From Eledone cirrhosa (Eukaryota), in the NCBI GenBank assembly GCA_964016885.1, contig OZ024742.1:21266001-21330000 (forward strand): DNA of 64,000 nt. Reading direction: 5' to 3'. Every line of letters begins with the position of its first letter. The stretch's first letter is position 1. The position numbers and the translations under genes were made by a program. Below the pieces are notes generated by a model. The model did not search any database and was not told the DNA's origin. It worked only from the letters and a program-made list of their open reading frames with translations. This document shows, in pieces, positions 29,175 through 64,000 of this stretch.

Positions 29175-29304
29175 AACCAAATAAATATATATATTTTAAA
29201 AAAAATAAGACTTCAGTTGCATTTTCGATTTCATCCCTTTTTCTTTATACTTCCACTCGTGTAGGACACCTCGGTTATTTTTCATTTTGTAAAAAAAACC
29301 TCAC

Positions 29305-38442: not shown

Positions 38443-38719
38443 GATTATTAGGAAGAAACTTTTATTTCCGTTATTTTCTTCTTTTTCTGGGGGGTTAGAA
38501 AATGCTTAAAACAAATTATTTTACATTCTGTGAAGTGTCAAAGTATTAAATAATTTATTTATTTATTAACAATACCATTTATTTATTTATTTATTTAATA
38601 ATTAACAATTACCGGTTTCAGCATTTTATGCATTTTCAAATTATGTGAGTGGGAGAGGAAAAAGAGGAATTTGTGTTTGTACAAAATGTAGAAGAGAAAT
38701 TAAATGTTCCTTCGCCACA

Positions 38720-38774
<55 letters not shown>

Positions 38775-38990
38775 GAATGCTATGGTTGACAGGAGGCTCG
38801 GCTCTGTAAGTTATTGTAAATTTTGACCGCTATAACAATTGTAAATTGTTTAAAACTTTAATCAACTTGTAGACAAAAACACCCTCCTCCTCGTGAGAGG
38901 GGTCTTTCTGCCCGTTATTTGGCTATTCGGGGTTAAATAACCGCTTATTGGGGTTTTGTGCCCAATATTTATTTTAAACAAAAAAACAAC

Positions 38991-41120
38991 ATGGCTACGA
39001 AAAAGAATTGTCATAGGTCACTCCCACTCATTCCGTCTTCTTCTTCTTCAATCGTCACTACAGCAGAGAGAAGATTGTCTCTCTCCCTCCCTTCTCTAAA
39101 TGTGTCTCTCTCCCTCCGTTCTCTTTCGCAAGCGACGCCAGAAAAGAAAAATCACGTGCAAAGCGAGCAAGATTTCTCCACGACGACGACGACAACGACG
39201 AAAAAGGTGTGCGGGAAATACGAAAACCCATTTCATTCGTCTGACGTCAGGAATAATAGCAGTAGCAGCCGTATTAACAGCAGCAACATTGACAAGGAAA
39301 ACAACAGTAGCAGCCACGACAGCATCAGCAGCAGCATAAACAACAACAGCATTAGCAGCAACAACAACAGCAGCAGCAGCAGCAACAACAACAACAACCA
39401 CAGCAACAGCGGCGGCGGCAGTAGTCGTAGTACCTGCAGCAACAACAAAAGTAAGAGCAGATCTGACGACAACAACAACAACAAAAGCAGCAAAGAAAAA
39501 CCAATCTCGTTTGCAGGTATCGCAAAGAACCTGGAAACCATCCTCATAACAAATGAGGAATTAGAGGAAGCGAAGAAGATGGTGACAAAAACTGGACACC
39601 GAGCAATCTGCAAGGCAGCCGAAATTTTTTTCGAAACCCAACAGCACTGTACGGTCACGTACCGTACAGTAAGTACAAAATCCCGTAGGGTTGAAAGAGC
39701 CACAGAGGCTCAAATACAAAAAGCCTTGGGGTATGTGTGGCAGCGGAAAACGCACATCACCCGAGGCAAGAAATATGCCACCGTAGACGTACTTTTTGCC
39801 ACACCCCAGAAAGCAAAGGCTCAATCCTTAGTGACCCTAAGGAGCGAGGAAATGGTGTTGGTGCCCTCCTACTGCGGGCAAAAACTTGTGAGGGTCAAAC
39901 TGACCCCCCCCCCCGGGATGGCCCCTTCTTGGCTGGCCGCGTCTGTCCTCGTCGGAATCGAGGACAAAACAACTGTACTGCAAGTACAGTATAAAGTAAG
40001 AGAAGATTGGGTCGGCACCTCCATTGAGATATTAATCCAAACCAACCAGGAGTGCATCGAAGCTATCCCGGATGTGATAGACTTCGATAACGGCACTCAA
40101 CTGCCAATAAGTGTTGAGGGCAAACGCCCGAAATGCTTTCGCTGTGGATCGAAGACTCACCTCAGGGCCTTCTGCAACGAGAAGACCCTGAGAAAGGAGA
40201 AAATCCCCCTCCTTCCGAAACCGGCTCCACGGCTCCCAGCAACAGGACAAGCGGCAACCAGGAACGATAGGTCCGTGGCACCCATACCCACATCACGGAA
40301 ATCAAAAACAGCAGCAGCAGTGGAAGTATTAACAACAACAACAACAATACCAAATGCAGCTGCAACAGAGACTCCAGTGCAAACATCACCAACAACAACA
40401 AGTGAAAGAGTGGAGCTGGTACCCCTCCCCAACCTCACAGAATCAGACATGGAGTGTGAGGTGGGATAGGGATGGCAAAAGGTCGTAAGAAGGCACAAAC
40501 GCAGAAGCAGCGCATCGTCGCCTTTGATAAGGGAGGAAAGAAATGAAAAAAGGGTAAAGGCTACTGCAAAGAGACTCACAGCAGCAACACCACCAACACC
40601 ATCACCACCCCCACTAGCACCACCATCACCACCGGCGACAACCCCACCGCCAGCAACAACAACACCTTCAACACCACCACCACAAGCACCAACATCGCAA
40701 ACACAACAACAAAACACACACACCCAGCAACAAAGACAAGAAAATAGTAGAGCCACACCTCACCCCCAGAAAAACAAATGCACGGCATTAAATACACACA
40801 ACAAGAAACTAATGACTTGAATAATTGAACACACAGACATTTCACAGCACGCCTACATAATACCAGCACCAATCAAAACGCCAACTAACATAAGACTGCT
40901 AAAAATAGCACAGAAACAAGACACAAACATTAAAACGAAATTCCCCAACGCAGTTGGTGATTTCAGAGACCTAGGAGGGTCACTTAACCGAAGAGTATAT
41001 TCGGACATACTCATAGAAGAGCCGACGACCAGCCGAAGGGACGATTCAACGGTCCCTTCACCAGACGATCAAGTGCAATGGGATGGAAAAACCATCCCTC
41101 CTCTACGAAAAGTGCGGTAA
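38991..41120 (+). pseudogene. Tx1 ORF1 type B (Ser/Asn-rich N-terminus, RRM-like region, CCHC knuckle)
   Basis: CFRCGSKTHLRAFC; in-frame stop at 40467; ends PLRKVR*. Confidence 0.8.
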
Positions 41121-41155
41121 GTGGTCTTCCCCATCTTTTCCACTCTATTTTAAAC

Positions 41156-44100
41156 ATGACCTCACTCAGAATAGGCAGCATAAATGCGCGTGGCTTGGGG
41201 TCGTCATGGAAGCAGAGTCACCTGCTCAACGACCTCAGGTCACTAAACATAGATGTAGTGGCCATCAGCGAGACCAGAATCTCTGAAGCACGGGCCTTCG
41301 CACCGATCTTCGGCGGCTACGATGTGTACGCATCTCCCAGCCGTCCTGGATCGGGAGGAGGACTTGCTGTGCTTTTTCGGAGAGGTTTGGATCTCGCCAT
41401 ACGGGCCATCTTCCTGGACCCAGAGTGTAAGTTGGTGGTGCTGGACGTGACCAGCAGAGACGGGCAAGCTTTCAGGCTAGTGGCCGCCTATGCCCCGACA
41501 GGAGCAGGGCGGCCTCATTTCTTCCGGCGTCTGGAGACCATTCTTGGAACGTCCCGCTCTTTAGTGTTAGTGGGGGACTGGAACGGGATCTTAGATGCAC
41601 GCTGGGACTGTGTGGGATTAGCGGATAGGGGTGGAGGGTGTAAGAGTCTCATCAACCTGCTCAGGCGTTTTGAACTGTCTGAAAGGTACCGATTGTATTT
41701 CCCGAATGTGCCAATGTGGACTTGGACAAATCGCATAAGGTCATCTAGATCATATCTAGATAGAGTATTTTGTAGAGAAATAGATAGGTCTAGCATAGGC
41801 TGTCCACAATTCAAGATAGTCAGCTACACGGACCACAAATTCGTGATCTGTGTGCTTGACTTAGATAGGCTTCATAGACGAGGACCCGGCTACTGGAAGC
41901 TAAACGCGTCCTTACCAGCGCGCAAGGCCTACAGAGACCGGATTAGCGAACTAGTTAAGCGGGCGTTGACGGGGGCCATCGTCAACAACAAGTGGTGGTT
42001 TGCTCTGAAAAGAGCAATTAGAATAGAGTCCATTAGGTTTTGTAAGGCTTTAGCAATAGAGAAAAATAGAGCAGAGGGAGAATTAGTTAGAAAATTAGAC
42101 GAGGCGCTTAGCAACGGCATCGCGACCGACGTACTTGCGGCGAAATTGACCCTTGACCAATTCTTCAATGCAAAGCGTGCTCTCAGACACGAGGGGACGA
42201 AAGCCGTTCAATGGGCCCGAGTGGCGGAGGCGCGTCGTGGCAATAAAGCCACGATCCGGTCTTTGGTGGACCACGACGGGCGCATGCTACTGGATCCCGG
42301 GTAAATGTGTGAAGCTTTTCAGCGACACTTCGCTCAGTTGTTCGGGGGCAGTGGCGGGCCGGATCGAGGGATGGACTTTAGTGTCTACCTCGATGGACTG
42401 CCGCGGCTCTCGGCCACTGAGGCGGAATGTTGCGAAAAGCCGATAACAGCCGCTGAAGTAAGGGAGGCAATGACTGGCTGCACAAGGGGTAAATCGCCTG
42501 GTTTGGAAGGTCTGCCCTATAGACTTTACGTACAGATGCCAGACTTGTTCGGAAGCCTCTTGGCGGACGTCTACTGCAACTGGCAACAGAACGGGAGAAT
42601 TCCCAGTTCTGTGAGCCGAGGAGCGGTGGCACTGCTGAGAAAGGATTGGAACAAGGGGGATAACATAGATAATTTCCGGCCCATAACTCTGCTAAACACA
42701 GAGTTCAAGATGTTGGCCAAGGTGCTAGCAAAGAGGTTGGCGCTTGTCGTTGGTGGTCTGGTGGGAGAGGCACAGACATGCGCCATTACCGACAGATCCA
42801 TCCTCGACAACCTCCACCTCATGCGATACATCATAGAGAGGGTAGCTAGGGAACCTGGCACGGATGGGTCCTTGATCAATTTAGATCAGTCGAAAGCTTT
42901 CGATAGGGTCGACCATCGTTACCTAGCGGCAGTCCTGAGGGCGGCTGGCTTTGGGCCCGTCTTCAGAGACTGGATCGCTGCATGCACAGCGACATCTGCT
43001 CTGTGGTGAAAGGGAACAGTCACCTGTCGGAACCGTTCAACATAATACGCCCGGTTCGCCAACGATGTCCCTTCTCCTCCCTCTTGTACGTATTGACTCT
43101 CGAGCCATTACTGCACAAACTGGAGACGTTGAGGGGCGTCCCGCGCGAACTAGCATGCGGAAGTTCCGTTTCAGCATATGCGGACTATGTCACCGTAGTG
43201 GTGTCGAACGCCAAACATATCGAGGCGATCGGCACTACACTAAGAGAATACGAAGCGGTGACAGGAGCAATGATCAACCAGGAAAAGTCAGTGGGCCTGC
43301 AGTCGGCACATGGAGAGGCAGGTCCATGCCGTCCAACAGCTTCGTCGGACGCTGGACGGACGGACCGGTTAAATTGCTAGGGGTCTGGTCGGTCCGGACC
43401 TCCAGACGGACAAAAACTGGGACGAGGTGACGAGCAGGGTCGCTTCTCTCACCCAGAAATGGGCTGAGAGGAAGCTATCCCTGAAAGGTCGAGCGGAGGT
43501 GGCTAACGCGTACATTCGCGTCTGTCATCTGCTACCGCCTGACTGTCGTACCTTATCCTAAGCCCCGCCTGACTGCGCTGGAGCGTTTGCTCTTTCGCTT
43601 TTGGTGGAATGGACGCGCTCCGATGGTCAGGCGGTCCATCTGCTGTCAAAACCCGCTACGTGGAGGGCTGGGAATGCCGTGGTTGATGATGCGCAGACAC
43701 GCGCTCAGGCTACGACATCTCCACCTCTTCCTCGACGGTGATCAGGTGTGATCGCCGTTTGCTAGATACGTATTTCTCCAGCTCGTTTCCTTGACGGAGC
43801 CGCAGTCCTGGGTCAAGCGAAGACCGAGAGGGAGCGCCTGGAGACTGGAATGTCTTCAGGCGCTCACAGCCTTCGAAAAATCGGGCAATGTGATCGGTAG
43901 AAACTCCACCTCGGCGTTCTATAGAAGATTAGTGGAGTGGAAGAGCGACGACGTACTTGGGGAAACTCTAGGCGTTGACGAAAATCAACTAGCCAATCTC
44001 TTCGGAAGAACTTTCGGGCCGGGACCTATGGACAACTTCCAGAAATCTCTGGCCTGGCAGTGCTACCGAGGAGCCTTGCCAGTTCGGGATAAACTCTACA

Positions 44101-44543
44101 GGCATTGATGTGCCGTCAGTCGGGCATGTCCGAGATGCGCGCAGGGCGACGAAACCGTCCTGCACGCACTCGTCCAGTGTCCGAAAATTGCTGATTTGTG
44201 GGTTTATGTCGAACACCCGCTGTCGCGTGTAGGACGGATCCCGCTGTCATCTGAGTCCATCGTGAGGATTTCCCCGCCCTCTTCCTTTAGCCGGGAAGGG
44301 CAGACAGTTTTTATCTGTCTGGTGGCCATGGCGAAAGAGATAGTATGGTGGACACGTTTGAAAGGGCTGAAGACGAGCACTTACCAGTTCGGTGATGCCC
44401 TGATTACCTTTTTCAAATACCATTTGAAAAGGATAATCAGGGTAGAGAGGGAAGTGCTCTCTTCCCAGCATTTTGTTGAAAGTTGGGTGAGAGAAGCAAG
44501 AATGGCCCGAGTGAATGTGCCTACTCTGAGTACGTATCTGTAA
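41156..44543 (+). pseudogene. Tx1 ORF2 (APE-RT), disrupted
   Basis: SINARG, ISET, GDWN, YLDR, TDH, KAFDRVDH; YADD changed to YADY; several stops and frameshifts. Confidence 0.9.
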
Positions 44544-44822
44544 ATTAAAGGTGGAAAACTGGGAGAGGGCACTTGCCTTGGTGGTCAGGGTCACTGTGGT
44601 CTTTTACTGGGCTTTCTCCACAAATGTCCCTCCGAAGTCTCCCCCCTATTGGGGAATTTTTCTTTGTTATTTTATTACATCCTCTGTTTTTTTACACGCA
44701 GAAATGTTCATTTGTACCGTCCTGTATTGTCCTGTACTGTCCTTAATGTCTACTTCGTGTAAACCCTTGTGGTTAATAAAGAAAACATTATTATTATTAT
44801 TATTATTATTATCGTCGTTATT

Positions 44823-47777
44823 CCTTGAATGTCAGTCATTGATGTTGGTTAACTGGAAAGTCCGTTGGAATGAATATCAAGCCACTACCTGCAGCCTCAG
44901 ATATTCAGGACGTATCGGAGGGTTCTTGCTGTTCCAAGCAAGCATGCCTTTTGAAGCGTTCCAAAAAGGTGAAGGGGCCGATTTTCTTTAACCATCCCTG
45001 GAAACTTTTGGAGATAGTCCCCAGTGCGCCTATGACAATCGGGATCACTTTGACTTCATGGCAGTTCCAAATCCTTTTCACCTCCCACTTTAGGTCCTGG
45101 TATCGGTTAATTTTCTCCCTCTCCTTCTCTTGCACTCTCGTGTCGAAAGGGCAGGCCACATCCACAATCAGACACGATCTTTTTTCTTTGTCCACAACCA
45201 CCAGGTCAGGTCTATTGTGTTCCAGTTTTTTGTCCGTCTGTATCCAAAAATCCCACAGCACCTTCACCTGATTGTTCTCCATCACCGCCTTTGGCCTGTG
45301 CTCATACCATTTCTCAGAATGTGGTAAATTGTTTACTTTGCACAGGTGCCAGTGGATCACCCTGCCCATCACATCGTGTCTCTAGCCCTTATAGTGGGTC
45401 TGGGCTAGGTGTTTACACTCGGACACAATGTGAGCCACAGGCTCCTCTCTCTCCCCACAGATCCTGCACAGTGGGCTAGCCTCCTCCTTGTAAATATGGT
45501 GCTTCAACCACTTCGTTTTGAGGGCCTGCTCCTGCGCAGCCATTAGCATTCCTTCTGTAGCCTTTTTGAGGTCTCCTCTTCTCAACCAGTTCCATGTCTG
45601 TGGATCTCTAAATTCAGTTTTCTCAAAGAAGGTACTATGAAGGGATTTTCCCTTAAGGCTGCTCTTCCTCCTTGATGTTATTTCCTCCTTGGACATCCCC
45701 TGGCCTACTGTCCCCTACTTCAGTACAGTTCTGAGCATTGGCTCCTTACTATAGGTCACGTATTTGTATAGGTTGTTTTTCTCCATCTGAACACAGTCCT
45801 CTATGCTGATAAGACCTATTCCACCCTCAGATCTCCTTAGGTAGAGTCTATCAACATCACACCTCTTGTGGAACATGTTGTAGATAGTCAATAGCTTCCT
45901 AGTCTTCCTATCCATTTCTTTTTGTTCAGCAACATTCCATCTCAGAATTCCCGCACTGTACCTAATAATAGACACAGCTCGGGAATTTACTGCGCTTATG
46001 GCATTTCTGCTGTTCAGATATGACTTCAATACGCTCCTTATTCTCCGAATGTATTCAGTTCTTAACAATTCCTTCATTTTTTTGTTCTTTATGCCATCAG
46101 CCTCCAGAACGCCCAAATACTTGTATCCTTCCTCAGAGTCAATTTCCTTTATCATCTCACCTGTTGGTATCTGGATCCCGTTACTTCTGCTCAACCTACC
46201 CCTCCTGATCACAATGACTCCACATTTACTAATAGCAAACTGCATACATATATCACTGCTGAAAATACGGACAGTGTCAACAAGCACATCCAACTCCTTC
46301 TCACTTTTCCCGAAGAGCTTAAGATCGTCCATGAAGAGGAGGTGATTGATGTAAAGCTCTCCCTTTCCCAACTTGTATCCTACTCTCACTTTTCGCAGCA
46401 TAATGGTCAAGGGCATCAGGGCAAGGACAAACAACAGAGGGGACAGGCTATATCCCTGGAAGATACCTCTCTTGATCTTCACGCTTCCCAAGGATACTCC
46501 AGTTGATGTCAACTCTGTCTCCCAGGACCCCATACTCCTGCCCAGCAACTGTCTGATGTTATCTGCCACCCTGACGATCTCCAGGCTTTTGGTGATCCAA
46601 GAATGAGGCACCATGTCAAATGCCTTTCTGTAGTCTATCCATCCCATGGCAAGATCAGTGTGTCTCCTCCTGCAATTCCCCATTACCATCTTATCAATAA
46701 GTAACTGGTCCTTTGTACCACGTGACTTCTTTCGGCATCCTTTCTGTTCGCCCGGTAACAAGTTGTTTGTGTGGAGGTGATGGTAGATTTCCTCAGACAC
46801 AATGCTCGTCAACAGTTTCCACATTACGGACAGACATGTGATAGGTCTATAGTTGGTAACATCATTACCCTTGATTCGGTCTTTCATTATCAGAACTGTG
46901 GTACCTTTTGTCAACCACTCTGGCACCTCACCCGACACCAAGCAGTCATTGAACATGGCCGTCAGCTTCGGGTGGAGGGATGTTAAATTTGTAATCCAAT
47001 ACCCCTGCACACCATCTGGGCCTGGTGATTTCCAGTTGGTTAGTTTTTTGGCCTGCTCCTTAAGAGTTTCAACTGTGATACTCAAATCAGTTTGTCGGTG
47101 TGCCTGCTCACCGATCTCCCTCTGTACTGTCTCAATCCACCCTGCCTGGACATTATGTCTAACATCCTGCTCCCATATTCCTCTCCAGAATGTTTTAGTT
47201 TGCTCCGCCCCACGGATCAAGTCGTTGCCTCTTTCTTTCCCCTCAAGCTGTCCAAACAGCATCTTCTGGTTGTTGTCGAACATGCGGTTCTGTTTATACT
47301 GACTGACTCTGTTCTCGTATCGCCTGATTTTTGCACTCTTTGCTACAATGCGTTGCTTCAGTTCCTCTATGATAATATTTAGCTTTTTCCTCCTAGTTTT
47401 GTACTTTATTTCCAGTCTATTTTTAGTGCCTATGTTTTTTAGTGTCCCATTCAGTAGTGACTCTAGCTTTCCTATGTCATTTCTCATTTCCCCGATTTGA
47501 CCACTCAGTCGTTTCTTCCACCACGGCTCTGCTCTTTCTTGTCTGTTGTTTCCTCTCGCTTTTATACCAAGTAGTTTCCTCACCGTATTTGCTGTTGCTT
47601 TGAGGATATTGTTGCACTGGTGAAGGCTCCTCGCCTCAAGGTATGGGATGACTTTGTTTACCTTAGCTGTTGTTTCTTTTAACTTTTTCCTGTCTACAAA
47701 TTTAGGTTCATAGGTCTCCGACTATCATTGTTCAATTCATCTACCACTAAATTTAGGATGTCAACCGAATCTTGTCC

Positions 47778-47779
<2 letters not shown>
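44823..47779 (-). mobile_element. R4/Dong-clade element, 5'-truncated, with nonsense mutations
   Basis: Near-identical to 53608-56567; TAG stops at 45715 and 45382; QGD changed to QGY; (ATT)n on both sides. Confidence 0.93.
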
Positions 47780-47856
<77 letters not shown>

Positions 47857-48067
47857 GGCGACCTACGTAGTAAATCGTATCATCGTGAGCTCCGCAAAGT
47901 TTTGTTATTTCTGTTTGTTAAAATATTGCCATTTATAGAGAATTTTTATTGTTAACTATATATAAGCGCACATACATTGCTTTCCGAAAAGGACACCCAA
48001 AAAGATTGGGGCCTTGTGCCCCAAATTTAAACTTTTATGATTATCAAAAAATTTCTTTGAAAAAAAA

Positions 48068-50061
48068 ATGGCTAATTCACCACTGCACCAAGCAGCTGAA
48101 AGCCTTTCTCACAAATTAACACCTCACACCGACACTACCATTGTAAATGATTATACGTCTTCCAACACAAACAATTTAAGCACTAGCAATATTTTAAATT
48201 TGTCTCAGGCAGACATTCATTTCCCGCCATTACCAATGACTGCAGGTGTTAAAGCCGCCACCACCACCACCACCACCGCGACAACCACCACCCCCACCAC
48301 CACCGCGAAAACAGAAACAAAAGGAAAAAATAAATCAGCTCGTGATGTCGAAATATTTTCAACCAAAATGGACTCTCCCAAACCGACTTTCACTGACGTC
48401 ACCACCACCACAACTGAAACTAAAATTAATAATAACAAAAATAACGATAGCAACAACAACAACAACAACAATGACATTAAAAAAACCACCCTGGGTTTTG
48501 CCAGAGTAGCAAAACAGTTCGAAGCATTTACGGTAACTCAAGAGGATTTAGAAAATGCCAAACAAATGGTAAAGAAAGATGGGTACAGGGTCGGCCTCGC
48601 CCCCGCACCTAATAAAATGGAGCATCGGCGCCCATGCACCGTGTCGTATCGAACAATAAATGTAAAATCGCGCCGAGTGGAACGGGCATCTGAGTCCCAA
48701 ATCCAAAAAGCTATGGGACATGTGTGGGCAAGAAAAACCCACATCAGACGTGGGCAGAAGTATGGAACCGTGGACGTGTTCTTTGAAACACCAGAGGAGG
48801 CTAGAGAACACTCCATGGCCCCCATTAAGAAGTGACGACTTCACACACGTCCCAAGCTATTGTGGCCAGAGACTCGTAAAGATCAGGGTGTCCCACGTTC
48901 CAGCGGCCATCGAAATTCCATGGCTAATAGCGGCCGTCCTCGCCGGCATCGAAGCTAACACAAAGATAATAGCAATAGCAAAAGAAAAGCAGGAGAACTG
49001 GTCCGGATCTGGGATGGAGCTCCTGATCCAAGCGGACCAAAAAAGCATTGAGGAGATCCCAGAGGTAATAGACCTCACTGATGGCAGCCACCTCACCGTA
49101 ATTGTCGAGGGCAGAAGGCCTAGGTGTGTCGTTTGTGGTGAAGGAACCCACCTAAGGGCTTTCTGCCATCAGGCTAAAAGGTTGAGGCCACCTCTCCTAC
49201 CCACCCCAGTGACACAACCATCAACATCACCAGTAGCAGAGATGGCAGCAACAACTGTAGCAGCAACAACAGAAGCAACTATAACAGCAACAACCCCAGC
49301 AACAGTAGCAAAACCACCACCACCACCACCAGCAAAACCAACACCACCACCACCCAACGCTTCAGAACTAGCACCAGCGCCTATACCATCTACCACGCCA
49401 CAACCAAAACTAACGCCTGTGGAGGATTTTCCACTCCCCGGCCTATCACAACTGGAGACAAATTATGACGACGAGGAGTGGGAAACGGTATCAGGAAAAA
49501 AAAAGAAACCAAAAAAGAAAAAATTCTCTTCCTTCCCCCTCCAAAAACAAAATACAGAGGGAAACAAATAAATTAACAAACATAAAAGTTAGGACAGATA
49601 TGCCACCATCCACACCAGCATCACCAAGCCCATCAACACAAACACCAACACCATCACCATCATTAACCCCAACACCACCATCACCTACACCACAAAAGTC
49701 ACCAAAATGCGAAACAGAAACAAACCCACAACAAACACAAACAAAACAAAACAACCAAAACGATACACACTACACAGCATTAAATTTGAACAACAAGCAA
49801 TTATTACACTACATCCAACACAACACCAGCATCACAGATAAAGACTACACAACAACCCAAAAATTCACACCACCTCCACACATACAAATCACTCGCATCA
49901 CACAGAAAACGTACATAACACTAAAACAAAAATTCCCCAAAGACATCGGAGACTTCCGACAAGCACTCTCCAGGAGGATTTATAAGGACATCGTTCCTGA
50001 GGAGGCCACAAGCAGTGAAAAGTATGGAAAAACCGTCCTTCCCCTACGAGAAGTAAGGTAA
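48068..50061 (+). pseudogene. Tx1 ORF1 type A/C, two frameshifts
   Basis: ORFs 48068-48835, 48720-49571 and 49465-50061; CVVCGEGTHLRAFC knuckle. Confidence 0.8.
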
Positions 50062-50095
50062 GTGGTCTTTCCCATCTTTTCCACTCCTTTTCAAC

Positions 50096-53000
50096 ATGAC
50101 CTCACTCAGAATAGGCAGCATAAATGCGCGTGGCATGGGGTCGTCATGGATGCAGGGCCACCTGCTCAACGACCTCAGGTCACTAAACATAGATGTAGTG
50201 GCCATCAGCGAGACCAGAATCTCCGAAGCACGGGCCTTCGCACCGATCTTCGGCGTCTACGATGTGTACGCATCTCCCAGCCGTCCTGGATAGGGGGAGG
50301 ACTTGCTGTGCTTTTTCGGAGAGGTTTGATCTTGCCATACGGGCCATCTTCCTGGAGCCAGAAGGTAAGTTGGTGGTGCTGGACGTGACCAGCGGAGAAG
50401 GGCAAGCTTTCAGGTTAGTGGCCGTCTATGCCCCGACAGGAGCAGGGCGGCCTGATTTCTTCCGGCGTCTGGAGACCATTCTTGGAACGTCCCGCTCTTT
50501 AGTGTTAGTGGGCGACTGGAACGGGATCTTAGATGCACGCTGGGAATGTGTGGGATTAGTGGATAGGGAAGGAGGGTGCAAGAGTCTCACCAACCTGCTC
50601 AGGCGGTTTGAACTGTCTGACAGGTACCGATTGGATTTCCCGAATGTGCCAATGTGGACTTGGACAAATCGCATAAGGTCATCTAGATCATATCTAGATA
50701 GAGTATTTTGTAGGGAAATAGATAGGTCTAGCATAGGCTGTCCACAATTCAAGATAGTCAGCTACACGGACCACAAATTCGTGATCTGTGTGCTTGACTT
50801 AGATAGGCTTCATAGACGAGGACCCGGCTACTGGAAGCTAAACGCGTCCTTACCAGCGCGCAAGGCCTACAGAGACCGGATTAGCGAACTAGTTAAGCGG
50901 GCGTTGACGGGGGCAATCGTCAACAACAAGTGGTGGTTTGCTCTGAAAAGAGCAATTAGAATAGAGTCCATTAGGTTTAGTAAGGCTTTAGCAATAGAGA
51001 AAAATAGAGCAGAGGGAGAATTAGTTAGAAAATTAGACGAGGCGCTTAGCAAAGGCATCGCGACCGACGTACTTGCGGCGAAATTGGCCCTTGACCAATT
51101 CTTCAGTGCAAAGCACGAAGGCTGCGTTGTCAGAGCTAGGGTGCGTGCTCGCAGACACGAGGGGACGAAAGCCGTTCAATGGGCCCGGGTGGTGGATGCG
51201 CGTCGTGGCAATAAAGCCACGATCCGGTCTTTGGTGGACCACGACGGGCGCATGCTAATCGATCCCGGGCAAATGTGTGAAGCTTTTCAGCGACACTTCG
51301 CTCAGCTGTTCGGGGGCAGTGGCGGGCCGGATCGAGGGATGGAATTTAGTGTCAACCTCGACGAACTTCCACGGCTTTCGGCCACTGAGGCGGAGAATTG
51401 CGAAAAGGCGATAACAACCGCTGAAGTACGGGAGGCAATGACTGGCTGCACAAGGGGTAAATCACCTGGTTTAGATGGTCTGCCCTATGAACGTTACGTA
51501 CAAATGCCAAACTTGTTCGGAGGCCTCTTGGCAGACGTCTACTGCAACTGGCAACAGAACGGGAGAATTCCCAGCTCTGTGAGCCGAGGAGCGGTGGCGC
51601 TGCTGAGAAAGGATCCGAACAATGGGGATAACATACATAATTTTAGGCCCATAACTCTGCTAAACACAGAGTTCAAGATTTTGGCCAAGGTGCTAGCAAA
51701 GAGGTTGACGACTGTCGTTGGTGGTCTGGTGGGAGAGGCACAGACATGCGCCATTCCCGACATACGCCATTCCCGTCTTCAGAGGCTGGATCGCTGCCAT
51801 GCACAGCGATATCTGCTCTGTGGTGAGAGTGAACGGTCATCTTTCGAAACCGTTCAACATCATACGCTCGGTCCGCCAAGGATGTCCCCTCTCGTCCCTA
51901 TTGTACGTATTGACTCTCGAGCCATTACTGCACAAACTGGAGACGTTGAGGGGGGTCCCGCGCGAACTAGGATGCGGAAGATCCGTGTCAGCATATGCGG
52001 ACGATGTCACCGTAGTGGTGTCGAACGCCAAACACATCGAGGCGATCGGCACTACACTAAGAGAATACGAAGCGGTGACAGGAGCAATGATCAACTAGTA
52101 ATAGTCAGTGGGCTTGCAGCTCGGCACCTGGAGAGGCAGGTCCATGCCGTCCAACAGCGTCGTTGGGCGCTGGACGGACGGACCGGTTAAATTGCTAGGG
52201 GTCTGGTTCGGTCCAGACCTCCAGACGGACAAGGTGACAAGCAGGGTGGCTTCTCTCACCCAGAAATGGGCCGAGAGGAAGCTATCCCTGAAAGGTCGAG
52301 CGGAGGTGGCTAACGCGTACATCGCGTTCGTCATCTACTACCGCCTGACCGTCGTACCTTGTCCTAAGCCCCGCTTGACTGCGCTGGAGCGTTTGCTCTT
52401 TCGCTTTTTGTGGAAGGGACTCGCTCCGATGATCAGACGGTCCATCTGCTGTCAACACCCGCTACGTGGAGGGCTGGGCATGCCGTGGCTGATGATGCGC
52501 AGACACGCGCTCAGGCTACGACATCTCCACCTCTTCCTCGACGGTGATCAGGTGTGGTCGCCGTTTGCTAGACACGTTTTTCCCCAGCTCGTCTCCTTGA
52601 CGGAGCTGCAGTCCTGGGTCAAGCGAAGACCGAGAGGGTGCGCTTGGAGACTGGAATGTCTTCAGGCGCTCACAGCCCTCGACCAATCGGGCAATGTGAT
52701 CGTAGAAACTCCACCTTGGCGTTCTATAGAGGATTAGTGGAGGGTAAGAGCGACGACGTACTTGGAGAAACTCTAGGCGTCGAAGAAAATCAACTAGCCA
52801 ATCTCTTCGGAAGGACTTTCGGGCCGGGGCCTATGGACAACTTCCAGAAATCCTTGGCTTGGCAGTGCTACCGGGGTGCTTTGCCAGTTCGGGATAAACT
52901 CTACAGACATGGAGGTGCCGTCAGCCGGGCATGTCCGAGATGCGCACAGACCGACAAAACCGTCCTGCACGCACTCGTCCAGTGTCCGAGCATTGCTGAC

Positions 53001-53311
53001 TTGTGGGTTTATGTCGAACACCTGCTGCCAGGTGTAGGACGGATCCATCTATCAGCTGAGTCCATCGTGAGGATTGCCCGCCCTCTTCCTTTAGCCGGGG
53101 AGGGCAGGCAGTTTTTATCTGTCTGGTGGCCATGGCGAAAGAGATAGTATGGTGGACACATTTGAAAGGGCTGAAGACGAGCACTTACCTCTTCGATGAT
53201 GCCCTGATGGTAGAGTGGGAAGTGCTCTCTTCCCAGTATTTTGTTGAAAGATGGGTGAGAGAACCAAGTATGGCCCGAATGAATGGGCCTTCTCTGAGTA
53301 TGTGTCTGTAA
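50096..53311 (+). pseudogene. Tx1 ORF2 (APE-RT), disrupted, internal RT deletion near 51765
   Basis: Same motifs as copy B; the LDQSKAFD block is missing. Confidence 0.9.
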
Positions 53312-53537
53312 ATTAAAGGTGGAAAACTGGGAGAGGGCACTTGCCCTGGTGGTCTTTTAATGGGCTTTCTCCACAAATGTCCCTCGGAAGTCTCCCCCCT
53401 ATTGGGGAATTTTTCTTTGTTATTTTATGACATCCTCTGTTTTTTACACGCATAAATGCCCATTTGTACCGTCCTGTATTGTCCTGTACTCTCCTTAATG
53501 TCTACTTTATGTAAACCCTTGTGGTTAATAAAGAAAA

Positions 53538-53595
<58 letters not shown>

Positions 53596-53607
53596 GTTAT
53601 TGTTATT

Positions 53608-56600
53608 CCTTGAATCTCAGTCATTGATGTTGGTTAACTGGAAAGTCCGTTGGATTGAATATCAAGCCACTACCTGCAGCCTCAGATATTCAGGACGTAT
53701 CGGAGGGTTCTTGCCGTTACAAGCAAGCATGCCTTTTGAAGCGTTCCAAAAAGCGTGAAGGGGCCGATTTTCTTTAACCATCCCTGGAAACCTTTGGAGA
53801 TAGTCCCCAGTGCGCCTATGACAATCGGGATCACTTTGACTTCATGGCAGTTCCAAATCCGTTTCACCTCCCACTTTAGGTCCTGGTATCGGTTAATTTT
53901 CTCCCTCTCATTCTCTTGCACTCTCGTGTCGAACGGGCAGGCCACATCCACAATCAGGCACGATCTTTTTTCTTTGTCCACAACCACCAGGTCAGGTCTA
54001 TTGTGTTCCAGTTTTTTGTCCGTCTGTATCCTAAAATCCCACAGCACCTTCACCTGACTGTTCTCCATCACCGCCTCTGGCCTATGCTCATACCATTTCT
54101 CAGAATGTGGTAGATTGTTTACTTTGCACAGGTGCCAGTGGATCACCCTGCCCATCACATCGTGTCTCCAGCCCTTATAGTGGGTCTGGGCTAGGTGTTT
54201 ACACTCGGACACAATGTGAGCCACAGTCTCCTCTCTCTCTCCACAGATCCTGCACAGTGGGCTAGCCTCCTCCTTGTAGATATGGTGCTTCAACCACTTC
54301 GTTTTGAGGGCCTGCTCCTGCGCAGCCATTAGCATTCCTTCTGTAGCCTTTTTGAGGTCTCCTCTTCTCAACCAGTTCCATGTCTGTGGATCTCTAAATT
54401 CAGTTTTCTCAAAGAAGGTACTATGAAGGGATTTTCCCTTAAGGCTGCTCTTCCTCCTTGATGTTATTTCCTCCTTGGATATCCCCTGGCCTACTGTCCC
54501 CTCCTTCAGTACAGCTCTGAGCATTGGCTCCTTACTATAGGTCACGTATTTGTATAGGTTGTTTTTCTCCATCTGAACACAGTCCTCTATGCTGATAAGA
54601 CCTCTTCCACCCTCAGATCTCCTTAGGTAGAGTCTATCGACATCACTCCTCTTGTGGAACATGTTGTAGATAGTCAATAGCTTCCTAGTCTTCCTATCCA
54701 TTTCTTTTTGTTCAGCAACATTCCATCTCAGAATTCCCGCACTGTACCTAATAATAGACACAGCTCGGGAATTTACTGCGCTTATGGCATTTCTGCTGTT
54801 CAGATGTGACTTCAATACGCTCCTTACTCTCCGAATGTATTCAGTTCTTAACAATTCCTTCATTTTTTTGTTCTTTATGCCATCAGCCTCCAGAACGCCC
54901 AAATACTTGTATCCTTCCTCAGAGTCAATTTCCTTTATCATCTCACCTGTTGGTATCTGGATCCCGTTACTTCTGCTCAACCTACCCCTCCTCATCACAA
55001 TGACTCCACATTTACCAATACCAAACTGCATACATATATCACTGCTGAAAATACGGACAGTGTCAACAAGCACATCCAACTCCTTCTCACTTTTCCCGAA
55101 GAGCTTAAGATCGTCCATGAAGAGGAGGTGATTGATGGTAAGCTCTCCCCTTCCCAACTTGTATCCTGCTCTCACTTTTCGCAGCATAATGGTCAAGAGC
55201 ATCAGGGCAAGGACAAACAACAGAGGGGACAGGCTATCTCCCTGGAAGATACCTCTCTTGATCTTCACGCTTCCCAAGGATACTCTAGTTGATGTCAACT
55301 CTGTCTCCCAGGACCCCATACTCCTGCCCAGCAACTGTCTGATGTTATCTGCCACCCTGAAGATCTCCAGGCTTTTGGTGATCCAGGAATGAGGCACCAT
55401 GTCAAATGCCTTTCTGTAGTCTATCCATCCCATGGCAAGATCAGTGTGTCTCCTCCTGCAATTCCCCATTACCATCTTATCAATAAGCAACTGGTCCTTT
55501 GTACCACGTGACTTCTTTCGGCATCCTTTCTGTTCGTCCGGCAACAAGTTGTTTGTGTGGAGGTGATGGTAGATTTCCTCAGACACAATGCTCGTCAACA
55601 GTTTCCACATTACGGGCAGACATGTGATAGGTCTATAGTTGGTAACATCATTACCCTTGATTCGGTCTTTCATTATCAGAACTGTGGTACCTTTTGTCAA
55701 CCACTCTGGCACCTCACCCGACACCAAGCAGTCATTGAACATGGCCGTCAGCTTCGGGTGGAGGGATGTTAAATGTTTAATCCAATACCCCTGCACACCA
55801 TCTGGGCCTGGTGATTTCCAGTTGGTTAGTTTTTTGGCTTGCCCCTTAAGAGTTTCAACTGTGATACTCAAATCAGTCTGTTGCTGTGCCTGCTCACCGA
55901 TCTCCCTCTGTACTGTCTCAATCCACCCTGCCTGGGCATTGTGTCTAACATCCTGCTCCCATATTCCTCTCCACAATGTTTTAGCTTGTTCCGCCCCAGG
56001 GATCAAGTCGTTGCCTCTTTCTTTCCCCTCAAGCTGTCCAAACAGCATCTTCTGGTTGTTGTCGAACATGCGGTTCTGTTTATACTGACTGACTCTGTTC
56101 TCGTATCGCCTGATTTTGGCACTCTTTGCTACAATGCGTTGCTTCAATTCCTCTATGATAATATTTAGCTTTTTACTCCTAGTTTTGTATTTTATTTCCA
56201 GTCTATTTTTAGTGCCTATGTTTTTTAGTGTCCCATTCAGTAGTGACTCAAGCTTTCCTATGTCATTTCTCATTTCCTCGATTTGCCCACTCAGTCGCTT
56301 CTTCCACCACGGCTTTGCTCTTTCTTGTCTGTTGTTTCCTCTCGCTTTTATACCAAGTAGTTTCCTCACCGTATTTGCTGTTGCTTTGAGGATATTGTTG
56401 CACTGGTGAAGACTCCTCGCCTCAAGGTATGGGATGACTTTGTTTACCTTAGCTGTTGTTTCTTTTAACTTTTTCCTGTCTACAAATCTTAGGTTCATAG
56501 GTCTCCCACTATCATTGTTCAACTCATCTACCACTAAATTTAGGATGTCAACCGAATCTTGTCCTAGCCCGTCAGCATTCATCTCCTCAGTGGCCGTATC

Positions 56601-57181
56601 TCTGTTCCAGGTATTATTTATCTCAGTATTCAGATCATTGTTTGCTTCGGGTGGTTCCTCCGTTCTCAGGACCTCCTCACCTTCATTTCCCGCTGGCTCG
56701 CTTGTCTGGCATACTACACCCGCCATCTCCAAGCCATTCTCTCTGCTCAGTTCCTCCAGTTCCAGCTCGCTTATCCACCCATTAGTTCTTATTACCCGAG
56801 CCTGCCCGGCCAATTTTTGTTCATCTAATTTAAATAAACCAATCTCGTTCCAGATGTTATGCATCCGTCTCCTGTAGCCCCTCTCCTTGGGGTTACTTTT
56901 CAGGTAGCATTGCATAACAGTTCTATTCAATTCTTTCGTCCAGTTGGTTCTGGCCCCTTTCCTTCTTCTTCTTCCTCCAACATCAGCAGTATTTGGTTGA
57001 CAGTCAGGTTCCTGCTGCTGAGCCAGGGGGCACCTGTTGGGTGAGAGTCTGTCACATGACGTTCTAGTCTCCATTTCACCGTTATTCGAACTGTTTATGT
57101 TCGATATTTAAACACTCTTATCGAGGATTGGCGAATGTATGTTTACATAGCCATCTGTGGATCCGCCATCCCACTTGGCCC
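53608..57181 (-). mobile_element. R4/Dong-clade retrotransposon, apparently full length
   Basis: Single ORF with short UTRs, flanked by (TAA)n on its sense strand, consistent with the known Dong target. Confidence 0.93.
53682..57074 (-). CDS. intact 1130-aa RT-RLE protein
   Basis: Myb-like WTKELN..W N-terminus, IDYRKAFD, GIFQGDSLSP, FMDD, CRIC..H...C, RHD, RPD..D..K..Y. Confidence 0.93.
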   Translation of the reverse strand: METRTSCDRLSPNRCPLAQQQEPDCQPNTADVGGRRRRKGARTNWTKELNRTVMQCYLKSNPKERGYRRRMHNIWNEIGLFKLDEQKLAGQARVIRTNGWISELELEELSRENGLEMAGVVCQTSEPAGNEGEEVLRTEEPPEANNDLNTEINNTWNRDTATEEMNADGLGQDSVDILNLVVDELNNDSGRPMNLRFVDRKKLKETTAKVNKVIPYLEARSLHQCNNILKATANTVRKLLGIKARGNNRQERAKPWWKKRLSGQIEEMRNDIGKLESLLNGTLKNIGTKNRLEIKYKTRSKKLNIIIEELKQRIVAKSAKIRRYENRVSQYKQNRMFDNNQKMLFGQLEGKERGNDLIPGAEQAKTLWRGIWEQDVRHNAQAGWIETVQREIGEQAQQQTDLSITVETLKGQAKKLTNWKSPGPDGVQGYWIKHLTSLHPKLTAMFNDCLVSGEVPEWLTKGTTVLIMKDRIKGNDVTNYRPITCLPVMWKLLTSIVSEEIYHHLHTNNLLPDEQKGCRKKSRGTKDQLLIDKMVMGNCRRRHTDLAMGWIDYRKAFDMVPHSWITKSLEIFRVADNIRQLLGRSMGSWETELTSTRVSLGSVKIKRGIFQGDSLSPLLFVLALMLLTIMLRKVRAGYKLGRGELTINHLLFMDDLKLFGKSEKELDVLVDTVRIFSSDICMQFGIGKCGVIVMRRGRLSRSNGIQIPTGEMIKEIDSEEGYKYLGVLEADGIKNKKMKELLRTEYIRRVRSVLKSHLNSRNAISAVNSRAVSIIRYSAGILRWNVAEQKEMDRKTRKLLTIYNMFHKRSDVDRLYLRRSEGGRGLISIEDCVQMEKNNLYKYVTYSKEPMLRAVLKEGTVGQGISKEEITSRRKSSLKGKSLHSTFFEKTEFRDPQTWNWLRRGDLKKATEGMLMAAQEQALKTKWLKHHIYKEEASPLCRICGEREETVAHIVSECKHLAQTHYKGWRHDVMGRVIHWHLCKVNNLPHSEKWYEHRPEAVMENSQVKVLWDFRIQTDKKLEHNRPDLVVVDKEKRSCLIVDVACPFDTRVQENEREKINRYQDLKWEVKRIWNCHEVKVIPIVIGALGTISKGFQGWLKKIGPFTLFGTLQKACLLVTARTLRYVLNI

Positions 57182-57189
57182 TTATTATT

Positions 57190-57251
<62 letters not shown>

Positions 57252-59105: not shown

Positions 59106-59544
59106 CCCCCACATAATACCAAACATTTTGCTCCGGGGAACAGACAGTGACACCAAATCTATCAACCATTTTATATCACAGGGCTCGACCTCCTATGAGA
59201 TACTCTCCTGCCAAGATAGGGCTTGTCCGTGAACAGTGGACATTAGGGATCTTGACTGTACTTAAACCATACCGTCGGTCAAGGCTCATAATCTGGATAC
59301 TCTCTTCTCTCCAACGATAAGGACGCCACTGACTGGGTTTGTGTCTCTATTCAAACATTCCCAGTGTGCTGTAACCTGAAATGTTTACTTCAGGAAAATA
59401 TAATTGATCGATTATTATGCGATAAAAAAGATTATTATATATTATTATACAAATGTGATTTAACTTATTTTTTCCATGTTGAAAACATTACCATAGTGAG
59501 AAAACCATTTTCTATTAAAAGTGAGGAAAAAAACGACACTGATA

Positions 59545-60660
59545 CACACATACACATACATCAATCACCACCACCACACAGATACACACATACATACATC
59601 AATGACCACCACCACACACATACACACATATATACATCAATCAACACCACAACACATATACACATACATCAACCACCACCACACACATACACACATACAT
59701 ACATCAATCAACACCACAACACATACATACATCAATCACCACCACCACACACATACACACATACATACATCAATCACCACTACCACACACATACACATAC
59801 ATATATACATATATCAACCACCACCACAACACATATACACATGTATACATCAATCACCACAACCACAACAAATACACACATACATCAGCCACCACCACAA
59901 CACCTACATACACATACATACACCAATCACCACCACCACAACACATATACACATACATACATACATCAATCACCACATACATACACACATACATACATAC
60001 ATACATACATCAATCACCACACCACAACACATATACACATACATACATCAATCACCACCACCACACACATAAACACATACATACACACACACACACACAT
60101 ACATACACATACATCAAGTACACCACCTCACAACACATACACATACATCAAGTACCCCACCCCACAACACATACATACATCATGTACCCCACCCCACAAC
60201 ACACAAACACATACAGCAAGTACCCCACCCCACAACAGACGCATACATCAAGTACCCCACCCTACAACACACATGCACATACATCAAGTACCCCACCCCC
60301 CAACACACACATACATCCTGTACCCCACCCCACAAAACAAATACACATACATCAAGTACCCCACCCACAACACATACACACATACATCAATCACCCACAT
60401 GATACGTACATCAACAAAAAACCCCACCCCCACCTCACATCATACATCCAGCAACAAACACCCCGCCTCCACTCAACATCCTACATACATCAACAAACAA
60501 CCCCCACCTCCACCCTACAACATATGTACATCAATAAACACCCCACCCCTACACCACATACATCAAGAAACACATCACCCCCACCCCTACAACACACATA
60601 CATCAATCCCGCCCCAACAAACCTACGCCAATCAGACCCGCCCCCGCCCCACAACACATA
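59545..60660. repeat. degenerate CA-rich minisatellite (acacatacatcaatcaccacc grading into acatcaagtaccccacccc)
   Basis: Direct inspection; source of the spurious His/Thr-rich ORFs. Confidence 0.85.
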
Positions 60661-60774
60661 AAATATAACCGGGATCAATAATCGTAATATTACCTTCTAA
60701 AAATTACATTCAATATCTGGGAATTCCCATTTTACGGATAATTGATCTTCGGAGAATTCCTTTTGACATTTAAC

Positions 60775-63700
60775 AATGTTACATATCACCTTTCTTCCAG
60801 TATACTTATCTGCTATTTATAAACCATGTGGTGTTCCCACAGCATACGTATCACCCTTCTTCCAGTATCTCTGATTGACAAATCTTCCAGTATACATGTC
60901 TGCTATTTATAAACCATGTGGTGTTCCCACTGCATACGTATCACACTTCTTCCAATATCTATGATTGACAAATCTTCCAGTATACATGTCTGCTATTTAT
61001 AAACCATGTGGTGTTTCCACAGCATACATATCACCATTCTTCCAATATCTCTGATTGACAAATCTTCCAGTATACATGTCTGCGATTTATAAACCATGTG
61101 GTGTTCCCAGAGCATACGTATCACACTTCTTCCAATATCTCTGATTGACAAATGTTCCAGTATACATGTCTGCTATTTATAAACCATGTGGTGTTCCCAC
61201 TGCATACGTATCACCCTTCTTCTAATATCTATGATTTACAAATCTTCCAGTATAAATGTCTGCTATTTATAAACCATGTGGTGTTTCCACAGCATACATA
61301 TCACCATTCTTCCAATATCTCTGATTGACAAATCTTCCAGTATACATGTCTGCTATTTATAAACCATGTGTTGTTTCCACTGTATACATATCACCCTTCT
61401 TCAAATATCTCTGATTGACAAATGTTCCAGTATACATGTCTGCTATTTATAAACCATGTGGTGTTTGCACTGCGTACGTATCACATTACACCAATATCCC
61501 TGATTGACAAATGTTACAGTATATATGTCTGCTATTTATAAACCATGTGGTGTTTCCACTGCATACATATCACCTTTCTTCCAATATCTCTGATTGAGAA
61601 ATGTTCCAGTATATATGTCTGCTATTTATAAACCATGTGGTGTTTCCACTGCATACATATCACATTTCTAACAATATCTCTGTGTGATAAATGTTCCAGT
61701 ATACATGTCTGCGATTTATAAACAATGTGGTATTTCCACTGCAAATCACATTTCTTCCAATATCTCTGATCGACAAATGTTTTTGTATACATGTGTGCTA
61801 TTTATAAAACATGTGGTGTTTCCACTGCATACATATCACATTTCTTCCAATATCTCTGATTGACAAATGTTTCAGTTTATAACTCTGCTATTTATAAACC
61901 ATGTGGTGTTTCCACTGCATACATATAACCTTCCTTCCTATATCTCTGATTGACAAATGTTCCAGTATACATGTCTGCTATTTATAAAACATGTGGGTTT
62001 CCACACCATACATATCACCTTTCTGCCAATATCTCTCATTGACAAATGTTCCAGTATATATGTCTGCTATATATAAACCATGTGGTGTTTCCACTGCATA
62101 CATATCTGATTTCTTCCAATATCTCTGATTGACAAATGTTCCATTATATATGTCTGCTATTTATAAACCATGTGGTGTTTCCACTGCATACATATCAAAT
62201 TTCTTCCAATATCTCTGATTGAGAAATACGTGTCTGCTATTTATAAACCATGTGGTGTTTCCACTGCGTACATATCACCTTTGTTCCAATATCTCTAATT
62301 GACAAATCTTCCAGTATATATGTCTGCTATTTATAAACCATGTGGTGTTCCCACTGCATACATATGCCCTTTCTTCGAATATCTCTGCTTGGCAAATCTT
62401 CTAGTATATATGTCTGCTATTTATAAACCATGTCGTATTTCCACTGCATACATATCACATTTCTTCCAATATCTCTGATTGACAATTATTCCAGTATACT
62501 TGTCTGTTATTTATAAACCATGTGGTGTTTCCACTGCATACATATCACATTTCTTCCAATATCTCTCATTGACAACTGTTCCAGTATACATGTCTGCTAT
62601 ATATGAACAATGTGGTGTTTCCACTGCATACATAACATCTTTCTTCCAATATCTCTGATTGACAAATCTTTCAGTATACTTGTCTGTTATTTATAAACCA
62701 TGTGGTGTTTCCACTGCATACATATCAACTTTCTTCCAATATCTCTGATTGACAATCTTCTACTCTACATGTCTGTTATTTAAAAACCATGTGGTGTTTC
62801 CACTGCATACATATCACATTTATTCCAACATCTCTGATTGACAGATGTTCCAGTATATATGTCTGCTATATATAAACCATGTGGTGTTTCCACTGCATAC
62901 ATATAACCTTTCTTCCAAAATCCCTGATTGACAAATGTTCCAGTATACATATCTGCTATTTATAAACCATGTGGTGTTTCCACTGCATACATATACACTT
63001 CCAATATATCTGATTGACAAATCTTCCAGTATACATGTCTGCTATTTATAAACCATGTGGTGTTTCCACTTCATACCTATCACCTTTCTTCCAATATTTC
63101 TGAATGACAAATGTTCCAGCATACATGTCTGCTATTTATAAACCATGTGGTGTTTCCACTTCATACATATCACCTTTCTTCCAATATCTATATTGACAAT
63201 CTTCTACTATACATGTCTGTTATTTAAAAACCATGTGGTGTTTCCACTGGATACATATCACATTTCTTCCAACATCTCTGATTGACAAATGTTCCATTAT
63301 TCATGTCTGCTATTTATAAACCATGTGGTGTTTCCACTGCATACATATCACATGTCTTCCAATATCTCTGATTGACAAATGTTCTACTATACATGTCTGC
63401 TATTTATAAACCATGTGGTGTTTCCACTGCATACATAACCCCTTTCTTCCAATATCTCTGATTGACAAATGTTCTAGTATACAGGTCTGCTATTTATAAA
63501 CCATGGGGTGTTTGCACTGCATACATATCACCTTTATTCCAATATCTCTGATTGACAAATCTACCAGTATGCATGTCTGCTATTTATAAACCATGTGCTG
63601 TTTGCACTGCGTACATATCACCTTTATTCCAATATCTCTGATTGACAAATGTTCTAGTATACATGTCTGCTATTTATAAACCATGTGGTGTTCCCACTGC

Positions 63701-64000
63701 ATACGTATCACCCTTCTTCTAATATCTATGATTTACAAATCTTCCAGTATAAATGTCTGCTATTTATAAACCATGTGGTGTTTCCACAGCATACATATCA
63801 CCATTCTTCCAATATCTCTGATTGACAAATCTTCCAGTATACATGTCTGCTATTTATAAACCATGTGGTGTTTGCACTGCGTACGTATCACATTACACCA
63901 ATATCCCTGATTGACAAATGTTACAGTATATATGTCTGCTATTTATAAACCATGTGGTGTTTCCACTGCATACATATCACCTTTCTTCCAATATCTCTGA
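60775..64000. repeat. 90-bp tandem satellite, about 36 units, running off the window end
   Basis: Unit ccagtatacatgtctgctatttataaaccatgtggtgtttccactgcatacatatcacatttcttccaatatctctgattgacaaatgtt. Confidence 0.97.

Follow-up and report, generated by a model that had tools for sequence, protein, structure and literature searches.

How does a single simple repeat come to hold four retrotransposons of two different kinds? The question is raised by an array at positions 38720-57244 of a 64,000-nucleotide stretch of contig OZ024742.1 (positions 21,266,001 to 21,330,000 of the forward strand), which is called the window here and whose own numbering is used throughout. The array consists of four copies of non-LTR (lacking long terminal repeats) retrotransposons, two Tx1-like and two Dong-like, piled up in one (ATT/AAT)n microsatellite. 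The best explanation, to which we give a probability of about 0.6, is that the two Tx1-like copies, the older ones, likely came first and lay head to tail, and that the two younger Dong-like copies likely went into the ATT tracts behind them afterwards.

Structure of the array

The array has the order (ATT)18-Tx1B(+)-(ATT)8-Dong1(-)-(ATT)26-Tx1C(+)-(ATT)19-Dong2(-)-(ATT)21 and a total length of 18,525 bp, and its elements directly adjoin the ATT tracts with no other DNA between them (Table 1). This order, the strands, the coordinates and the lack of intervening DNA had been reported in a first-pass annotation and were confirmed in the sequence. Its distinction between a two-ORF (open reading frame) element with an apurinic/apyrimidinic-like endonuclease (APE) and a reverse transcriptase (RT) and a single-ORF element with a restriction-like endonuclease (RLE) was supported by Pfam matches and motifs. 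Of the 10 ATT or AAT runs of at least 6 units, which together make up 0.57% of the window, 8 are found at the ends of these elements, a clustering that is not due to chance.

Table 1. Positions of the retrotransposon copies and repeat tracts in the window.
Feature	Position	Strand	Remarks
Tx1B, Tx1-like long interspersed nuclear element (LINE), apparently full length	38775-44786	+	ORF1, ORF2, 3' untranslated region (UTR), junctions
Tx1C, Tx1-like LINE, apparently full length, C-type 5'UTR and ORF1	47857-53538	+	ORFs, alignment to Tx1B
Tx1A, a further member of the Tx1-like family, with C-type ORF1	4956-9891	-	self-BLAST, junction analysis
Dong1, 5'-truncated Dong-like element	44813-47777	-	2 stops, one 1-bp loss
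Dong2, apparently full-length Dong-like element	53608-57181 (start approximate)	-	open frame, motifs
DongA, 348-bp 3' fragment of another Dong subfamily	4578-4925	+	antisense in Tx1A tail
(ATT)18 tract, phase (TAT)18	38720-38774	.	left array end, 5' flank of Tx1B; junction ...ATT/GAATGC
(ATT)8	44787-44812	.	Tx1B tail, tail to tail with Dong1 tail
(ATT)26, phase (TAT)26	47778-47856	.	between Dong1 5' break and Tx1C 5' end
(ATT)19 and degenerate units	53539-53595, degenerate to 53607	.	Tx1C tail joined to Dong2 tail
(ATT)21, phase (TTA)21, one interruption	57182-57244	.	right array end, 5' flank of Dong2
(ATT)10 tail of Tx1A (AAT on +)	4926-4955	.	repeat search
(AT)15 and (TAA)6	4530-4577	.	5' flank of DongA

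The Tx1-like family and its probable target

The Tx1-like family has two ORFs, the second with APE, RT and a C-terminal CCHC motif, as in the Tx1 clade. ORF2 pieces of Tx1A, Tx1B and Tx1C matched Exo_endo_phos (E 2.5e-15), RVT_1 and zf-RVT (E 1e-7) in Pfam, with the Exo_endo_phos and RVT_1 matches of Tx1B and Tx1C lying on the plus strand, and motifs of the APE domain were recognized as well. In Tx1B a B-type ORF1 with a CCHC knuckle and in-frame stops starts at an ATG at 38991 and ends at about 41120, followed by a broken ORF2 (APE-RT-CCHC, about 41156-44543) and a 3'UTR that has AATAAA without poly(A). This copy carries 4 private stops in 809 codons, and its frame is shifted by several indels; the ORF2 of Tx1C is broken by 3 private stops, deletions of 152 bp and 36 bp and single-base losses. 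Both types of ORF1 carry C-x2-C-x4-H-x4-C; no Pfam domain supported the Tx1-like ORF1, and the look-alikes in the Atlas were CCHC and ZCCHC3-type clusters at 0.91-0.93, which serve as a lead only.

The top relative of the Tx1-like ORF2 from a named species was that of Argonauta hians, with 57-76% identity over the main aligned pieces, which points to an octopod as the probable host, and the proxy protein P0122 was 68-80% identical to this ORF2 over its main aligned pieces. Protein scans of viral and prokaryote contigs gave no locus; those of metagenomes gave 5 distant ones, of which only L001 was informative. This metagenome contig (1-5678) holds a complete two-ORF Tx1-like element (443 + 1303 aa) that is Kibi-like and flanked by (TC)n at both ends. 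With phmmer, P0122 scored 281 bits against the ORF2 of L001 and 174 bits against human L1 ORF2p, both being pairwise scores; the Tx1-like ORF1 gave no significant match to the ORF1 of L001. An exact-motif search returned 0 matches in the metagenome, viral and prokaryote contigs.

The two apparently full-length copies, Tx1B and Tx1C, agree at their borders (2/2): (ATT)n is followed directly by G at the 5' end, and AATAAAGAAAAC is followed directly by (ATT)n at the 3' end. Their upstream tracts of 18 and 26 units have the same strand and the same phase in front of unrelated 5'UTRs, and at their ends neither a non-repeat target duplication nor poly(A) was found. Over all three copies, in a window selected for the array, ATT was present on the 3' side in 3/3 and on the 5' side in 2/3. 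Judging by these junctions, by the small share of the window in such runs and by the (TC)n flanks of the relative L001, the Tx1-like family quite probably has a real preference for ATT. The first-pass annotation had proposed a target shared with Dong in opposite polarity; the polarity held, and the shared ATT target probably does so too, on the strength of the two apparently full-length copies in phase. Mostly non-ATT 5' flanks of Tx1 had been named there as evidence to the contrary, and this was found in part, for one copy out of three.

That copy, Tx1A, had not been mentioned in the annotation: its (ATT)10 tail holds an antisense Dong, and its 5' end, lost inside ORF1, joins GIY-YIG-like DNA and not ATT. 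The adjoining DNA is a decayed fragment of Penelope type at 9900-10290 (-), with a Pfam match of E 4.4e-4 that is below the curated cut-off. By tblastn the fragment had no match to a separate Penelope-like frame at 27888-29195 (-), which is 435 codons long and includes a GIY-YIG domain.

The Dong-like copies

Dong2 has an open frame of 1141 codons at 57107-53682 (-) with an RVT_1 match of E 2.9e-22. Its C-terminal part shows what we take to be the CCHC (952), RHD (981) and PD-(D/E)xK motifs, the latter with RPD at 1037, DVACP at 1054 and K..RY at 1070. The endonuclease part aligns with the R2 endonuclease region, its motifs are conserved in 15 sequences, and the closest relatives with solved structures are R2 proteins. 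A single long RT ORF, the C-terminal CCHC/RHD/PD-(D/E)xK order and (TAA)n on both sides are the features of R4/Dong elements that Dong2 shows; no named Dong or R4 sequence was among the 120 matches listed. An N-terminal SANT/Myb-like domain has been described for the R4/Dong clade (PMC7998251); no Pfam match to one was found in Dong2, where an invariant block (W56, N61, C67, R81, W86, L99, I106) is present near the N-terminus in the 15 sequences. A hepatitis delta virus (HDV)-like 5' ribozyme is reported for Bombyx Dong (PMC3774820), and none was found at the 5' end of Dong2, Rfam giving 0 matches at the gathering score and 7 at chance level. The 5' end of Dong2 (57082-57181, -) folds into a stem from the first G (z -2.7). 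Another relative of Dong, the 1710-aa protein P0002, matches Dong2 with each of residues 16-771 and 767-1710 and looks like two tandem copies fused in frame, which may be an assembly product.

Dong1 was, as first noted, truncated at the 5' end straight onto the repeat: it breaks off at 47777, where 2 nt of microhomology mark the junction to (TAA)n. Its stop at 45717 and its 1-bp loss at 44968 are private, as 327/340 and 40,733/43,357 reads, respectively, differ from them. The third copy, DongA, which by its changes is another Dong subfamily, lies at the tail of Tx1A in the order (ATT)10, 348-bp antisense Dong 3' fragment, (ATT)6, (AT)15. All three Dong copies have TAA on both sides, two of them at a 5' truncation, and an antisense Dong is present in the tail of each of the three Tx1 copies of the window. 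The claim that Dong targets TAA repeats was upheld, and such targeting is described for insects, molluscs and cnidarians (PMC3812793, PMC7998251).

Probable independence and order of the insertions

Kimura two-parameter (K2P) distances over ORF2 and the 3'UTR were 0.070 for Tx1A/Tx1B, 0.059 for Tx1A/Tx1C and 0.062 for Tx1B/Tx1C. Dong1 and Dong2 were separated by 0.023, and DongA by 0.106 and 0.126 from the other two. This disagreement between the divergences of the partners argues against a Tx1-Dong unit that was duplicated or co-mobilized: a co-mobilized composite was rejected since the divergences of the partners do not match, and tandem duplication of one unit since the Dong copies differ by 2.3% and the Tx1 copies by 6%. 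The first-pass view that the array is not a simple tandem duplication is therefore sustained by Dong copies 2.3%, Tx1 ORF2/3'UTRs 6% and ORF1s far more apart, and the four copies are likely separate insertions.

The order of arrival was estimated from private changes, for Tx1 by a three-way and for Dong by a two-way comparison; the counts are rough, as they include change in the master lineages (ratio of nonsynonymous to synonymous change per site, pN/pS, 0.44-0.59). Private nonsynonymous change was 0.030 in Tx1B (55.5/1846 sites), 0.028 in Tx1A and 0.020 in Tx1C (35.5/1791 sites), with 4, 1 and 3 private stops, respectively, in about 800 codons each. Between Dong1 and Dong2 there were 40 amino-acid differences over 958 codons (2271 sites), of which 21 were derived in Dong1 (2 of them stops), 14 in Dong2 and 5 were assignable to neither; Dong2 had 0 stops. 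Decay differed between Tx1B and Dong1 (p = 2e-5), between Tx1C and Dong2 (p = 0.002) and between Tx1C and Dong1 (p = 0.004, or 0.028 with all unassigned changes given to Dong1). These counts point to Tx1B, Tx1C, Dong1, Dong2 as the likely order of arrival. As decay is further advanced in each Tx1 copy than in either Dong, the supply of target at this locus would have been one-way, from Tx1 tail to Dong. DongA differed mostly at silent sites, which account for 10 of its 20 private changes (private pS 0.18, pN 0.05).

Probable exchange of the 5' modules

The different 5' halves of the Tx1 copies were also borne out. The DNA of Tx1B and Tx1C is alignable only from 41083/50024 onward, that is, from the last dozen codons of ORF1; upstream of this point the two are about 34-62% alike per block of 250 columns, with 65% in the switch block. 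In the core, the two ORF1 proteins share 47-52% identity, and the ORF2s that follow them are 94% alike. Tx1A shares the C-type ORF1 with Tx1C (K2P 0.091), and the three ORF2s are about equally distant from each other. This pattern is likely the result of a recent swap of 5'UTR and ORF1 between Tx1-like lineages. Comparable swaps are known in mammalian L1, and a literature search at the level of titles and listings found no Tx1 case of an ORF1 swap.

Reads from four runs were placed on 38445-50000. In run X5 the two families and the two types of ORF1 are all present at high copy number; the summed depth there was about 105,000-160,000 over most of the 5' half of Tx1B, 130,000-186,000 over most of that of Tx1C and 540,000-740,000 over ORF2. 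With the lower depth over the 5' halves, additional 5' types or related families may well exist. The X5 depth steps up between bins 48095-48480 and 48481-48866, near the start of the Tx1A/Tx1C match at 48606.

Over 500 bp of ORF2, Tx1B (41635-42135) and Tx1C (50573-51073) are 98-99% alike, compared to 94% overall. In this stretch (268 columns) Tx1A has 15 private changes, Tx1B 1 and Tx1C 1, and gene conversion between neighbors or a shared recombinant segment is a possible cause.

Alternative explanations

Could ATT be merely a tail of the Tx1-like family, with a weak AT-rich preference at most, so that chance or local build-up brought its copies into ATT and Dong alone is targeted? Simple-repeat tails are common in many untargeted LINEs, the 5' junction of Tx1A (1/3 copies) is to GIY-YIG-like DNA, and the window was selected for its array. 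We nevertheless consider this rather unlikely, given that both apparently full-length copies, with unrelated 5'UTRs, have 18 and 26 units upstream in one strand and phase, that such runs are so small a part of the window (0.57%) with most of them at these junctions, and that self-BLAST revealed no repeat to which the left tract of Tx1B could belong as a tail. Less likely still is the model of the first-pass annotation, in which both ATT/TAA-specific families keep feeding each other and alternating arrays are the signature, recurring beyond the expectation from shared targeting. Two Tx1 and two Dong copies can stand in 6 orders, of which 2 alternate, so that alternation (1 in 3) is at chance level, is not evidence of mutual feeding and was rejected as a signal; once each family has a fixed tail, ATT for Tx1 and TAA for Dong, any order of arrival gives elements of opposite polarity that meet tail to tail. 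It can be said for mutual feeding that 3/3 Tx1 tails hold a Dong, that the 5' tract of Tx1C adjoins Dong1 and that DongA could predate Tx1A, in which case a Tx1 would have entered the tail of a Dong. The claim that each insertion regenerates target for the other was not supported all the same: with more decay in the two Tx1 copies than in either Dong, the array points to Tx1 tracts feeding Dong, Tx1 probably went into a Tx1 tail, and no dated insertion of Tx1 into a Dong tail was found. In a restriction-site-associated DNA (RAD) run, moreover, 140,110 molecules begin at a cut site close to the 3' end of Dong and run toward its tail, whereas the total depth at the Tx1 3'UTR (44686-44687) is 2,883-3,453; without correction for size bias, this would leave only a small minority of Dong 3' ends in tails of this Tx1-like family.

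Two further explanations concern the array as a whole and are less probable again. Unequal crossing-over at ATT tracts may have doubled a Tx1-Dong unit in tandem, with recombination afterwards swapping the 5' half and truncating Dong. Both halves do have the same order, with a colinear 4.8-kb match at 94% and the 500-bp stretch of ORF2 that is 98-99% alike in Tx1B and Tx1C, and we still regard it as very improbable: the Tx1 parts differ by 6.2% and the Dong parts by 2.3%, Tx1C is as near to the distant Tx1A (0.059) as to Tx1B (0.062), the break of Dong1 on (TAA)n with microhomology resembles a 5' truncation, and pN/pS below 1 indicates change in active lineages and not only after a duplication. 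The least probable explanation is an assembly artefact in which separate loci were joined through ATT tracts. Every junction crosses an ATT tract of 26-79 bp, and among the read pieces listed from the four runs none spans the placed stretch 38445-50000; on the other hand, all four copies carry private changes of their own, the same junction of Tx1 tail and Dong occurs independently at 4926-4955, and the tracts are short relative to the elements.

The reading in which two Tx1-like copies were followed by two Dongs is itself weakened by several points. Tx1A has no ATT at its 5' side, so either the family is not strict in its preference or the 5' end disappeared afterwards, and three Tx1 copies only were available, in a window chosen for the array. 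None of the loose read ends listed (24 of 7,554) is at a Tx1 5' end. The ages include change in active lineages, and the order of Tx1C and Dong1 is the weakest step. Finally, the divergence of DongA exceeds that of Tx1A, chiefly through silent changes, and DongA may be the older or the younger of the two.

The start places of the RAD run (X12) match SphI and AATT sites, the enzyme names being our deduction, and its species label may not be that of the window. An upper bound of about 10% on Tx1 tails holding a Dong was considered and dropped, as no bound follows: the yield of Tx1 itself per 300-bp RAD fragment is 2,697-3,726 molecules (19,000-23,000 with a related family), against at most 3,453 junction reads.

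Other features of the window

The array lies 3.5 kb from a satellite region (59542-64000) of CA-rich 32-68-bp repeats and then a 90-bp satellite of 35.9 copies that runs past the window end. Another decayed, GC-richer non-LTR element is present at about 17500-20750 (+), with RVT_1 at E 2.9e-6 (19035-19715) and without ATT flanks. A (TTATTT)41 tract lies at 24929-25177, a G20 run at 21256-21275 and a short palindromic element at each of 2254-2416 and 21585-21673.

Proposed mechanism and relation to known systems

Insertion into a microsatellite leaves target on both sides, according to the literature. In the proposed mechanism, the APE of the Tx1-like element would nick the (AAT)n strand between T and A and would prime on RNA read through into (AUU)n behind the AATAAA signal, and the Dong endonuclease would nick the opposite strand. 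Each insertion would split one tract in two, the orientation of each family would be fixed by its own tail, and a Tx1 would probably have landed in a Tx1 tail.

The finding is mostly explained by known microsatellite targeting. Dong of Bombyx mori, DongAg, DongBg, Darwinula Dong1/2 and the R4/Dong clade have, like the Dongs of the array, a single ORF with RT and C-terminal restriction-like endonuclease and no N-terminal zinc finger seen; all of them occupy (TAA)n repeats that flank even 5'-truncated copies at both ends, and nothing essential is different. Many Tx1 families are target-specific, and the criterion used for a microsatellite-specific one is the target on the flanks of over 20% of the family copies (PMC4494074). 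Kibi targets (TC)n, Koshi (TTC)n and crocodilian families (TTCC)n/(TTTC)n (PMC4494074, PMC3812793), and the first-pass statement that Kibi and Koshi target other microsatellites was correct in this respect. These are likewise two-ORF APE-RT elements with the microsatellite on both sides, sense on the T-rich strand and no poly(A) tail; the Tx1-like family of the array differs in its ATT unit, its two ORF1 types on one ORF2 and its probably octopod host. Our literature search found no (ATT)n-targeting Tx1 and no Tx1/Dong array, and Kojima and Fujiwara 2004, Repbase or the supplements of PMC4494074 may list one. What is new here is a Tx1-like family, probably octopod, that likely prefers (ATT)n and likely exchanges its ORF1.

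Dong-R4 and L1-Tx1 repeats are abundant and recently active in octopus, with 1,129 and 421 recent insertions, respectively, in O. vulgaris, and the available portions of these reports (PMC13282606, PMC8967140, PMC9115989) make no statement on targets, tails or mixed arrays. Sharing of one repeat on opposite strands is already known for SART/TRAS. SART1 and TRAS1 target telomeric (TTAGG)n and are both of the APE type, in the R1 clade. In Bombyx mori they insert into one repeat in opposite directions (PMC7265360) and in this resemble Tx1 and Dong here as two LINE families in one repeat. The array differs in pairing an APE with an RLE element, in an interstitial trinucleotide repeat, and the specificity of its APE partner is putative.

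It is a tentative and rather doubtful extension that octopods carry a Tx1-like lineage homing to (ATT)n on the strand opposite to Dong, with self-extending mixed arrays genome-wide, and that this lineage retains its target through exchanges of whole ORF1/5'UTR modules. Without ATT targeting by the Tx1-like family, the locus would be an ordinary pile-up of Dong in repeat tails. If the targeting is real, ATT would join the list of Tx1 targets (TC, TTC, TTCC, TTTC), and nature would have supplied two unrelated endonucleases, one for each strand of the same 3-bp repeat, that could easily be compared in vitro. It would also explain part of the clustering of microsatellites and LINEs in a repeat-rich genome.

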